Shown here piece after piece: positions 11,644 to 61,217 of a stretch of 64,000 nt of DNA. The position numbers and the translations under genes were made by a program. The notes under the pieces were generated by a model. The model saw only the letters and a program-made list of their open reading frames with translations, ran no database searches and was not told where the DNA came from. The stretch comes from Eledone cirrhosa (lineage: Eukaryota), in NCBI GenBank assembly GCA_964016885.1, contig OZ024741.1:364994001-365058000 (forward strand), given 5' to 3'. Position 1 is the first letter of the stretch. Every line of letters begins with the position of its first letter.

Positions 11644-11648
<5 letters not shown>

Positions 11649-12217
11649 CGGGTAAAATTCCCGAGATCCTTGGACGAGTTCTCTTCAGCGGTCTCTGTCC
11701 CTCATTATCGCTGCCATGTCCTGCGTCTCCAACAGACCAGTGTCTGTCCTTAGGGCATCAACATACGTTAATCTTGGTCTTCCTCTTCCAGTGTGTCCAT
11801 GTAGGGGCTCTCACAGGAGCACTGAGTGCAATGTCAACTCTGGATGTCGGTGACCATGTCCAGCTAACCTCAGTCTCCTCTGTGTCACTTTTGAGCTGAC
11901 TTTTGGGAGGCTCCCATACAGCTCTGAGGATGAACAACTCAGAGCTGTATGGGAGCCTCCCAAAAGTCAGCTCAAAAGTGACACAGAGGAGACTGAGGTT
12001 AGCTGGACATGGTCACCGACATCCAGAGTTGACATTGCACTCAGTGCTCCTGTGAGAGCCCCTACATGGACACACTGGAAGAGGAAGACCAAGATTAACG
12101 TATGTTGATGCCCTAAGGACAGACACTGGTCTGTTGGAGACGCAGGACATGGCAGCGATAATGAGGGACAGAGACCGCTGAAGAGAACTCGTCCAAGGAT
12201 CTCGGGAATTTTACCCG

Positions 12218-12222
<5 letters not shown>
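11644..12222. mobile_element. Palindromic RTE-clade LINE 3' end: arms 11644-11928 (-) and 11938-12222 (+), 9-bp spacer
   Basis: Arms are reverse complements (ORFs 11558+ and 11967- end in the same peptide); + arm encodes LAGHGHRHPE..GRGRPRLTYVD and matches 60932-61217. Confidence 0.92.
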
Positions 12223-12658: not shown

Positions 12659-12718
<60 letters not shown>

Positions 12719-12858
12719 CGTTTCATTTTTTCCGTTTATCGTTTTCGGTGCCCCCGGCCGATTAACTCACTCGATATGAAAATTAGGCTGCTCAGCCGTT
12801 AATATGCATAAAGAAAGTATATACTTTCAGACGTTCAATCATCTGGCAGGAAGGTATA

Positions 12859-12899
12859 CGTTGCTGACGATAGCTAATAAGCTTGAAACTAGTACAGCG
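12859..12899 (+). ncRNA. Minimal type I hammerhead ribozyme, unit 1
   Basis: cgttg-CTGACGA-tagct/aata/agctt-GAAA-ctag-TA-cagcg; palindromic stem III ACTAGT; GUA triplet. Confidence 0.85.
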
Positions 12900-13288
12900 T
12901 TCCTTTGTCAGTGTTGAACAAAAGAGCAACGATGGTTGCTAGACACTGTACGGCTTAATTTGGGATGTTTGTTTACAAAAACACCGAGCATTATAATAAA
13001 TGTTCGGTGAATCCATACGTACATATATATATGTGTGCATGTATGTATATATATATACATACTACTGTACGTCTGTATACATATATGTATGTACGTATAC
13101 ATACTTATATTTAAGTAACAGCCGTACTAAGAGTGATAAATGAAATTTCGTTTCATTTTTTCTGTTTATCGTTTTCGGTGCGCCCGGCCGATTAACTCAC
13201 TCGATATGCAAATTAGGCTGCTTAGCCGTTAATATGCATAACGAAAGTATATACTTTCAGACGTTCAATCATCTGGCAGGAAGGTATA

Positions 13289-13329
13289 CGTTGCTGACGA
13301 TAGCTAATAAGCTTGAAACTAGTACAGCG
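13289..13329 (+). ncRNA. Minimal type I hammerhead ribozyme, unit 2
   Basis: Same sequence as unit 1. Confidence 0.85.
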
Positions 13330-13720
13330 TTCCTTTGTCAGTGTTGAACAAATGAGCAACGATGTTTGCTAGACACTGTACGGCTTAATTCGGGATGTTT
13401 GTTTACAAACACACCGAGCATTATAATAAATGTACGGTGAATCCATATGTACATATATATATATATGTGTGTGTATGTATGTATATATACGCACTACTTT
13501 ACGTCTGTATACATATATGTATGTACGTATACATACTTATATTTAAGTAACAGCCGTACTAAGAGTGAGAAATGAAATTTCGTTTCATTTTTTCCGTTTA
13601 TAGTTTTCGGTGCACCCGGCCGATTAACTCACTCGATATGCAAATTAAGCTGCTCAGCCGTTAATATGCATAAGGAAAGTATATACTTTCAGACGTTCAA
13701 TCATCAGGCAGGAAGGTATA

Positions 13721-13761
13721 CGTTGCTGACGATAGCTAATAAGCTTGAAACTAGTACACCG
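13721..13761 (+). ncRNA. Minimal type I hammerhead ribozyme, unit 3 (one stem I mismatch)
   Basis: Same core; cagcg changed to caccg. Confidence 0.8.
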
Positions 13762-14150
13762 TTCCTTTGTCAGTGTTGAACAAAAGAGCAACGATGGTTG
13801 CTAGACACTGTACGGCTTAATTTGGGATGTTTGTTTACAAAAACACCGAGCATTATAATAAATGTTCGGTGAATCCATACGTACATATATATATGTGTGC
13901 ATGTATGTATATATATATACATACTACTGTACGTCTGTATACATATATGTATGTACGTATACATACTTATATTTAAGTAACAGCCGTACTAAGAGTGAGA
14001 AATGAAATTTCGTTTCATTTTTTCCGTTTATAGCTTTCGGTGCACCCGGCCGATTAACTCACTGGATATGCAAATTAAGCTGCTCAGCCGTTAATATGCA
14101 TAAGGAAAGTATATACTTTCAGACGTTCAATCATCTGGCAGGAAGGTATA

Positions 14151-14191
14151 CGTTGCTGACGATAGCTAATAAGCTTGAAACTAGTACAGCG
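14151..14191 (+). ncRNA. Minimal type I hammerhead ribozyme, unit 4
   Basis: Same sequence as unit 1. Confidence 0.85.
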
Positions 14192-14321
14192 TTCATTTGT
14201 CAGTGTTGAACAAATGAGCAACGAAGGTTGCTAGACACTGTACGGCTTAATTTGGGATGTTTGTTTACAAACACACCGAGCATTCGGTGAATCTATACGT
14301 ACTTATATATATATGTGCATG

Positions 14322-14356
<35 letters not shown>

Positions 14357-14392
14357 TATGTCTGTATACATATATGTATGTACGTATACATA

Positions 14393-14491
<99 letters not shown>

Positions 14492-16122: not shown

Positions 16123-16167
16123 ATCGTCCTGATGAGAATCCAGTTAAGTTCGAAATGCATCGACGAT
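16123..16167 (+). ncRNA. Minimal type I hammerhead with canonical core
   Basis: atcgtc-CTGATGA-gaat..gttc-GAAA-tgca-TC-gacgat; 6-bp stem I; palindromic ATGCAT; downstream sequence recurs at ~19478-19595. Confidence 0.85.
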
Positions 16168-59495: not shown

Positions 59496-59792
59496 ACAGT
59501 TAAAAATATAGATATAAATATTTATATATAGTCTATCAAAGTTCTTTCATCACACATCTGTGACATCATCAGTGGTATTATTATGTTTCCTCCCGTTCTA
59601 TTGCCATGACTATTCTATTCTATTCTATTTTTTTTATTTACACTTGTCTTCATTTGCCCATGCGTTTGTGTGTTTGTTTTCTGTTTGGTGTGTGTTCGAA
59701 ACATAATAGTATCACTGATGATGTCCTCAGGTATATGATGAAAGAACTTTGATAGATTATATATCAATTTTTATATCTATATTTTTAACTGT
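59496..59792. ncRNA. ~94-bp inverted repeat with a hammerhead in each arm (59534-59577 -, 59710-59754 +)
   Basis: tatca-CTGATGA-tgtc..gat-GAAA-gaac-TT-tgata; the - copy has the better stem II (gtcaca/gatg/tgtgat). Confidence 0.75.
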
Positions 59793-59969
59793 CATATTCA
59801 AAATAGAAAAGGCTTCTACTCTGCTATGTATTGAATACCATACTTACTGTGGTTACCCCCCGATTAAACCCGGGATACACACACACACACACTTATATAA
59901 ATTAAATTAGAATTTAATTTCTCGCACAGCGGATACATAAATGTAAGTATGCATACACACACACACACA

Positions 59970-60018
<49 letters not shown>

Positions 60019-60040
60019 GTACGTATGGGTTACATCGAAT

Positions 60041-60320
60041 ATTAATAATAATGTTCGATTCGGTTGTAAACAAACGACCCGAAACTCGCTCTGTATGCAA
60101 ATAAGGCTACTCAGCCGACGTGTACTTAAGAAAATACTATATATTTTCAACCGTTCAACAGATTGGCAGAGGTATACAGTCCTGATGAAGTGTAATGACT
60201 CAGAAACATGTTGATTGTTCCTCAAAGCCAGTGTTGAACAAACAGGGGACAATCAGTCACCAGCACAGCACAGCTTCAAATCGGCCCGTTTGTTAACAAA
60301 CAAATCAAACATTATTATTA
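60041..60320 (+). mobile_element. Solo diverged relative of the 430-bp unit, bounded by ~35-bp imperfect inverted repeats; octamer at 60095-60102
   Basis: Collinear blocks ATGCAAAT.AGGCT.CTCAGCCG, CGTTCAA, GGTATAC, CAGTGTTGAACAAA, GTTTGTT.ACAAA. Confidence 0.8.
60176..60218 (+). ncRNA. Minimal type I hammerhead
   Basis: acagtc-CTGATGA-agt/gtaatg/act-ca-GAAA-catg-TT-gattgt; palindromic ACATGT. Confidence 0.78.
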
Positions 60321-60590
60321 GCGGTGGATTGGCAGTATCGGTAGAGGGTCGGACGCCATGCTTTCCAGCATAGTTACGTCCCTTTACGATCTGAGTTCAA
60401 ATCTCGCCGAGGTTGACTTTGCCTTTCATCCTTACGGATAAAATAAAGTACCAGTAATGCACTGGGTAATTTGCTGGCCTTGTGCCTAAAGTAGAAACAA
60501 TTATTAATGTTGGATATAACCCATACGTACATATGTATATGTATAGATGTGTGTGTATGTATATATATATATGTGTGTGTACATGTACAT

Positions 60591-60681
<91 letters not shown>

Positions 60682-60722
60682 TATATTTATATATGCACGT
60701 GTGCATACTTACATTTATATAT

Positions 60723-61217
60723 ATGTGCCACAGCTTGAGCTCGGTGTGGAAGTCGGACCTTCGTAAAGACCTGAAAATCCGCCTCTTCATTGCTGTAGTG
60801 GAGTCTGTGCTGCTGTACTGGTCTGAGACTTGGACATTGACCAAAAAACTCACTCAGATGGTGGATGGCTGCTACACGAGAATGCTGAGGATGGCTCTGA
60901 ACACTAATCAGTATACACTGAGGATGAAAAACTCAGAGCTGTATGGGAGCCTCCCAAAGATCAGCTCAAAAGTGACACAGAGGAGACTGAGGTTAGCTGG
61001 ACATGCTCACCGACATCCAGAGTTGACATTGCACTCAGTGCTCCTATGGGAGCCCCTACATGGACACACTGGAAGAGGAAGGCCAAGGTTAACGTATGTT
61101 GATGCCCTAAGGACAGACACTGGTCTATTGGAGACGCAGGACATGGCAGCGATAATGAGGGACTGAGACCGCTGGAGAGAACTCGTCCATAGATCTCGGG
61201 AATTTTACCCGCCCTAG
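60723..61217 (+). mobile_element. RTE-clade LINE 3' fragment in (TA)n; non-palindromic relative of 11644-12222
   Basis: [44 protein letters not shown]; premature stop at 61164-61166. Confidence 0.9.

Follow-up and report, generated by a model that had tools for sequence, protein, structure and literature searches.

The locus at positions 59895-60720 of the window, the 64,000-nucleotide stretch of the 3.0-Gb Eledone cirrhosa genome analyzed here, is very likely a decayed member of a high-copy, non-coding repeat family whose type I hammerhead covaries, and the repeat would be a non-LTR retrozyme mobilized in trans to (TA)n sites by the reverse transcriptase (RT) and GIY-YIG endonuclease of a Penelope-like element (PLE). 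Directly observed are that the locus belongs to a family whose lineages covary, that copies occur as partial tandems and with head-to-head arms, that the 3′ ends fall at two fixed sites with the tail on one arm, and that autonomous PLEs of this genome have the same ends. Judged from sequence, the locus belongs to a superfamily of type I hammerhead non-LTR retrozymes with three families, which we call A, B, and C. In the proposed mechanism, tandem transcripts would fold and be cut by the hammerhead, probably as dimers in families A and B and as monomers in family C, and cleavage would perhaps yield circles of ~430 nt. A PLE protein would bind a domain closed by a long-range 8-bp helix, cut AT-rich DNA, and prime cDNA on both strands from two internal starts, one giving rise to a short end and the other to a tail. 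Copying around a multimeric or circular template would generate insertions of 1.1 to 7 or more units, which would then decay neutrally, the window copy included. Covarying subfamilies of a hammerhead retrozyme are textbook material, and the added value here is mechanistic; the copying of animal retrozymes has so far been argued from co-occurrence and sequence kinship.

Anatomy of the locus and size of its families

The window contains a family-B insertion and a family-A array, with the following features.

59895-60082, minus strand: inverted 5′-truncated arm, the 3′ part of a family-B unit (outer boundary approximate)
about 59895-59937, minus strand: long end with a tail of ~43 nt, inside the inverted arm
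59924-59931, minus strand: 3′ strand of the 8-bp helix, in the tail; its first letter differs from the commonest family form
60083-60320, plus strand: first part of the forward family-B unit, 5′-truncated
60153-60239, plus strand: type I hammerhead with its outer helices (hammerhead itself 60169-60223)
60169-60172 with 60220-60223, plus strand: upper helix, with internal loop TAT / U1.7 (60219)
60176-60181 with 60213-60218, plus strand: stem I
60182-60212, plus strand: catalytic core CUGAUGA...GAAA, as read from sequence (CTGATGA at 60182, GAAA at 60203)
60190-60201, plus strand: stem II, broken here by changes at 60191 and 60200
60206-60211, plus strand: palindromic hexamer, followed by the GUU triplet
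between 60212 and 60213, plus strand: predicted cut site
60268-60275, plus strand: 5′ strand of the 8-bp helix in the window copy
60314-60320 and 60500-60506, plus strand: 7-bp duplication flanking the SINE-like insertion
60321-60499, plus strand: later insertion of 179 bp, a presumed SINE-like repeat
60500-60720, plus strand: remainder of the forward unit with its short end (no tail), then TA; end near 60720
12715-14402, plus strand: family-A array, 3.9 units of 430 bp, short end, then (TA)n
12864, 13294, 13726, and 14156, plus strand: cores of the family-A array

The original prediction described the family-B copy as collinear with the 430-bp unit, which holds (66.9% over 242 nt, E = 2e-9); the flanks also align when the core is set aside, and in none of three tests (5′ flank, 3′ flank, and sequence beyond the insertion) did a shuffle reach the observed score (0/2000 each). 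It also described a solo copy, a monomer bounded by inverted repeats, and this picture had to be abandoned. Family B has at least 290 copies (exact pattern matches, against 0 for the control), the left boundary is an inverted arm, and on the right the element continues past the insertion to about 60720. The locus is a head-to-head insertion with one tail.

The pattern common to A and B has 21,322 matches in the genome versus 11 for its control, and 1,404 of these matches lack the G typical of A. Family A, with its 430-bp unit, has about 20,000 core matches, and a stem II pattern common to B and C has 2,891 (control, 0); family C was first met beside PLE loci. Close relatives of the window region number at least 40 at 89-93% identity, with 40 scored of 2,202 candidates. 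Throughout the families, insertions are made up of incomplete tandem runs of a circularly permuted unit and frequently have a head-to-head arm, and either another unit or unrelated DNA lies upstream of a unit. Same-strand cores one unit apart occur in 9/30 family-A loci (two of the nine being the window array), 0/30 family-B loci, and 1/25 family-C loci. Among the first 100 A/B-pattern matches, neighbors within 1 kb were head-to-head in 14 cases and tail-to-tail in 1, as counted by eye. No open frame with RT plus GIY-YIG was found in or beside the unit. Contigs of unknown kind with family sequence carry the same subfamily variants only.

Several minor observations concern individual loci. A tandem array at L151:7286-9000 represents a longer A subfamily with a spacing of about 490-510 bp and TAA in the stem I loop, and three near-identical loci (L025, L026, and L027) about 32 kb apart on one contig are a segmental triplication. 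Runs filed under three other organisms contain low-depth family-A contigs, which may reflect contamination, diet, or relatives. The SINE-like repeat of ~180 bp has 8 further copies within the 64-kb window, and no tRNA gene was found in the insert. This repeat sits in a ~35-bp zone around an ATTATTA hairpin loop in 7/30 family-B loci, at differing positions (L001, which is the window locus, L002, L003, L012, L017, L018, and L021; oriented positions about 1720-1760), and the zone is an apparent insertion hotspot for it. The equivalent site in some family-C copies apparently carries the repeat too.

By all sequence features that can be tested, the element is a metazoan non-LTR retrozyme: a non-coding unit of 150-450 bp with a type I hammerhead and many dispersed and tandem copies. 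The metazoan retrozymes described by Cervera and de la Peña (2020, PMC7229834) share the type I hammerhead and the low-GC tandem repeats of 150-450 bp, and are likewise described with thousands of copies, no ORF, and a short palindromic helix III; the helix II base of axolotl HHR_Amex2, too, is a U·U mismatch. The present element differs from those in its triplets, GUA or GUU, and in the non-standard stem II base of every subfamily. We found no description of inverted arms that carry a tail on one side in the text of that paper, whose supplement may show cephalopod or inverted examples. In the freely accessible literature searched, we found no report of this family or of a one-tail retrozyme signature. 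The kind of element is already known, and the family members are new.

Hammerhead features and predicted self-cleavage

The motif has the CUGANGA...GAAA core with A15.1-U16.1 and an NUH site. The cleavage triplet is GUA or GUU in family A, GUU in B, and GUC in C. In hammerheads, position 10.1-11.1 at the base of stem II is a standard pair, usually G-C. Here every subfamily has U·U, C·A, or A·A at this position (A·A in the window copy), never a standard pair. A U·U variant of the stem II base is reported to cleave (PMC7229834), so a non-standard pair does not exclude hammerhead membership, and cleavage at GUU sites has been described as well (PMC9217987). The combination of a non-standard stem II base with GUU in family B may mean low activity. 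In Xenopus, 1/9 retrozyme dimers is described as cleaved in vitro (bioRxiv 10.64898/2026.07.22.740005). The Rfam hammerhead models gave no match at the gathering score in the window, nor any match up to E = 5 in 59900-60600; the missing match is a limit of the models and not a defining trait.

In the place of helix III, families A and B have a self-complementary hexamer, with self-duplexes of -4.8 and -4.6 kcal/mol. Family C has a 3-bp stem III with a tetraloop and no palindrome, and it is favorable as a monomer (-13.9 vs -12.7); the family-B stem III is that of family C minus four loop letters. Lünse et al. reportedly published a study of hammerhead dimers in 2017. For the minimal dimer hammerheads of PLEs, an unstable palindromic helix III is taken to indicate folding as a dimer (Cervera and de la Peña 2014, PMC4209133), and the stem III pattern of A, B, and C plausibly fits that dimer model. 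Unlike the hammerheads of that paper, those of A and B keep a 6-bp helix I, an internal loop, and a short helix II, and that of family C has its 3-bp helix III closed by a tetraloop. The change of palindrome from A to B is one event, and it would be seen about 1 in 3 times by chance once both letters change. Selection on the palindrome for dimer cleavage is plausible, as it would fit known biology and the palindrome-less family C, although none of 30 family-B loci has tandem cores. Families A, B, and C provide a natural series for monomer versus dimer cleavage and for tolerance of a non-standard stem II base.

The window copy departs from the commonest letter of 20 other family-B copies at 60163 (C in 17/20 copies, T in 2, and G in 1), 60191, and 60200. 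The changes at 60191 and 60200 place a U·U in stem II (0.0 vs -3.7 kcal/mol), a break that probably leaves the window copy crippled and dead.

How much cleavage matters to the element is where the best-surviving alternative parts from our reading. It is a doubtful but serious possibility that the element is mobilized by a PLE and yet keeps its fold as a protein-binding or folding scaffold, with self-cleavage weak or dispensable and no circles. Such a role would agree with the non-standard stem II base in all subfamilies, with GUU in B and one A subfamily, with the absence of tandem cores in B (0/30 loci), and with fixed ends that do not lie at the cleavage site; hammerhead cleavage is also dispensable for PLE insertion in vitro, where PAc hammerhead mutants still insert (PMC11167929). 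A scaffold sits less well with a catalytic core, A15.1-U16.1, and U1.7 that are identical in all 12 aligned A, B, and C copies, and related elements from mussel, coral, and axolotl are reported to cleave and circularize (PMC7229834).

Insertion ends, a long-range helix, and Penelope-like elements

The outer ends of insertions fall at two fixed sites, mostly followed by (TA)n. The long end lies 35-60 nt beyond the short end. In the head-to-head loci of families A and B, 26/31 have one tail, 4 have none, and 1 has two (expected with one tail, 15.4; p = 8e-5); these come from 120 loci, of which 15 overlaps or duplicates were removed and 36 were head-to-head, with 5 that had an unresolved end left out. 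Family C gives 16/17 with one tail, from 55 loci with 18 head-to-head and 1 duplicate left out. Together, the tail is on exactly one arm in 42/48 head-to-head insertions (p = 4e-8), where a "short" end means that no tail was found and includes decayed ends, and where the loci are best matches or the first along one chromosome and not a random sample. At both outer edges of an insertion lies the 3′ end of the element itself, in its short form on one side and its long form on the other. Arms with one tail beside (TA)n are the signature of PLEs. Partial tandems, an inverted 5′-truncated copy, and a tail usually at one end are described as PLE features by Craig et al. (bioRxiv 10.1101/2021.04.23.441226), and Frangieh et al. 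(2024, PMC11167929) found that the PLE tail lies between two internal RT start sites, a property "unique to PLEs", and that the PLE extends both target strands.

The genome contains such elements in number. GIY-YIG matches were obtained for 150/150 scored of 10,597 PLE candidates; one autonomous example has a 937-aa frame with RT and GIY-YIG, and further long frames are present. A Cx4CxxC linker occurs in 7/8 PLE proteins, and a Zn-finger-like linker has been tied to microsatellite targeting (bioRxiv 10.1101/2021.04.23.441226). Two autonomous PLE families insert into (TA)n with the same pair of ends, short and long; their tails measure about 63 and 40 nt. Canonical EN+ PLEs with a Neptune/Nematis-type linker (Craig et al. 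2021; PMC11167929) are described with partial tandems, an inverted 5′-truncated copy, a tail at one end, microsatellite or AT-rich targets, and a hammerhead in the repeat, all as here. The present element differs from them in having no RT-EN frame, a full stem I internal loop in place of a minimal hammerhead, and tails of about 35-60 nt. Among 40 PLE loci (of 10,597 candidates), none had a terminal repeat with homology to family A, B, or C, the matches being separate insertions; 175 family loci gave no such homology either. A family-C-like hammerhead beside a PLE in L153 and L149 was considered as a part of the PLE and proved to be a separate insertion.

A joint fold of 4 A and 4 B full units has 80 predicted pairs, 15 of them changed on both sides, and several of these lie outside the ribozyme. 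Among its elements, an 8-bp long-range helix connects the beginning of the tail with a stretch 3′ of the hammerhead. It pairs GTACGGCT with AGCCGTAC in family A (382/408 cells paired), GCACAGCT with AGCTGTGC in family B (59/64), and ACATGGCT with AGCCATGT in family C (248/264), and with three different sequences it covaries across all three families. Its 3′ strand lies 6-9 nt after the short end and 20-50 nt before the long end. The helix probably marks the binding site of the PLE protein. In minimum free energy folds of two autonomous PLE ends, nothing clearly comparable to this helix reaches into the tail. Taken together, tails on a single arm and a helix that covaries in all three families are direct genomic support for PLE mobilization that is new here, and with the two-start-site tail, the helix makes trans-mobilization of retrozymes directly testable with an existing in vitro assay. 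More tentatively, the helix could be a minimal PLE recognition module between two RT start sites, in a non-coding RNA that a Neptune-type protein copies on both target strands in trans; families B and C would then record a natural switch, made by one 4-nt stem III loop, in whether the hammerhead is monomer-competent or dimer-only.

Li, Clavereau, and Pollet (2026, bioRxiv 10.64898/2026.07.22.740005) describe retrozymes as non-autonomous PLE derivatives, the same conclusion on the mobilizer as ours, and report solo, dimer, and multimer copies. Their evidence, as presented, is co-occurrence and pLTR homology, mostly in vertebrates, whereas ours is insertion anatomy with no pLTR homology found. 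Their main text has no mention of a tail, covariation, palindromes, or molluscs.

Ends and targets that are the same as those of PLEs could also be expected if the units were 5′-truncated insertions of coding PLEs, that is, solo pseudo-LTRs, in arrays that grew later by unequal crossing over. The Xenopus data lend this some weight, since 24/57 retrozyme families there are described as homologous to known TEs, mostly PLE termini, with local amplification proposed (bioRxiv 10.64898/2026.07.22.740005). Here the explanation is unlikely. Upstream of the units, one finds another unit or unrelated DNA; a same-strand PLE C-terminus upstream of a detected family core was found in 0/175 loci (13 with PLE fragments); and inverted arms that contain several units (L048 and L080) suggest a multimeric template.

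Mobilization by a LINE, with twin priming as the origin of the inversions, is far less probable still. LINEs can produce 5′ inversions, and a LINE-like 3′ fragment adjoins both window loci. A LINE origin is at odds with insertions that are bordered on both sides by the element's 3′ end, once at each of two fixed sites, and the LINE fragment is present in only 3/30 family-B loci (the window locus, L015, and L023) and itself ends in TA repeats. Trans-mobilization by a PLE remains the preferred reading of these ends.

Covariation between lineages and further motifs

The covariation of the hammerhead between lineages is real. Genomic copies decay neutrally, so the comparison was made between lineages, using one A copy and one B copy with a gap-free 55-nt core and 16 pairs. 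Ten of the 16 pairs are the same, 6/16 changed on both sides with all 6 still paired, and 0 changed on one side; one of the 6 is the middle palindrome pair, which can form only between two hammerheads. When 12 random changes are placed on 30 paired positions, all pairs are kept in 6/1,000,000 trials, and with the positions of change fixed, in 5,778/1,000,000. Across 43 copies of A and B, selected out of 127 cores, 93.3% of cells are paired versus 27-41% for slid partners, and in 12 hand-picked A, B, and C copies the figure is 99.1% (slid controls, 23-45%), with 9/19 pairs changed on both sides; the shuffle tests ignore the relatedness of copies, and the tested structure was drawn from the same sequences. 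With 8 better-kept copies, RNAalifold found stems I and II as well as the outer helices. All 43 copies gave 7 weak pairs and missed the hammerhead, a failure that we attribute to decayed copies given the result with the better-kept ones.

These comparisons also settle the helices named in the original prediction. The changes of stem I from cgttg:cagcg to cagtc:gattg and of the stem III hexamer from ACTAGT to ACATGT are as claimed, and the outer GTTCAA:TTGAAC helix is kept. The proposed change of ggaa:ttcc to gagg:cctc was misregistered: TTCC is present in both, and the homologous helix AGG:CCT is unchanged, its fourth pair falling at an indel. In the ttggc helix, a one-sided change from G·U to G-C does occur, but the first T (60163) is private or rare in family B, and the helix therefore shows a one-sided change only and no two-sided one. 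The stem II covariation, AGCT:AGCT versus GGGT:ACCC between families, and its break in the window copy are additions to that account. Helices I and II are thus backed by covariation in the families, stem II being broken in the window copy, and selection on the RNA fold is borne out for the master lineages (6/6 changed pairs compensated) but not for the window copy, where stem II pairing is lost. There is no GGTATA bulge; the unpaired part is TAT opposite one T. The bulge had been proposed to form the tertiary contact, but it varies itself (TAT, TAA, or TGA), whereas U1.7 is unpaired and invariant and the stem II loop region always ends in A. In full-length hammerheads, U1.7 is described as forming a Hoogsteen contact with the final A of loop II (PMC11875169), which makes this pair the likelier tertiary contact here.

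That the paired differences arose by chance divergence between two repeat families is next to impossible: the events are few, relatedness inflates shuffle tests, and the 43-copy fold missed the hammerhead, but the lineage-level nulls, the slid controls (23-45% versus 99% paired), the new pair types in a third lineage, and the recovery of stems I and II from 8 copies refute it for stems I and II, with the single palindrome pair excepted.

One pair of the weak 43-copy fold (alignment columns 37-48, in a 3-bp hairpin over the core) covaries in A and B; it is not kept in C and was taken as a coincidence. Beside both retrozyme loci of the window lie LINE-like 3′ fragments of one family, 96% alike, at 60732-61217 and 11644-12222, which we take to be RTE-like; no Pfam match was found for them, and the copy at 11644-12222 is a head-to-head pair that ends in (TA)n. 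One PLE family (L144, L145, L150, L154, and L155) has a compact hammerhead-like motif about 350-410 nt past the stop codon. The L144-type motif has a U·U at the stem II base, a palindromic stem III hexamer, and a U at the cut site, the same oddities as in A and B without sequence homology. Further hammerhead-like motifs in the window lie at 16129, 18084 (minus strand), 19857, 20117 (minus), 20236, 55976, 59572 (minus), 59715, 12582 (minus), and 14969 (minus), with head-to-head pairs at 59572/59715 and 20117/20236. Since some of them are found at many other loci as well, several more families are present in the genome.
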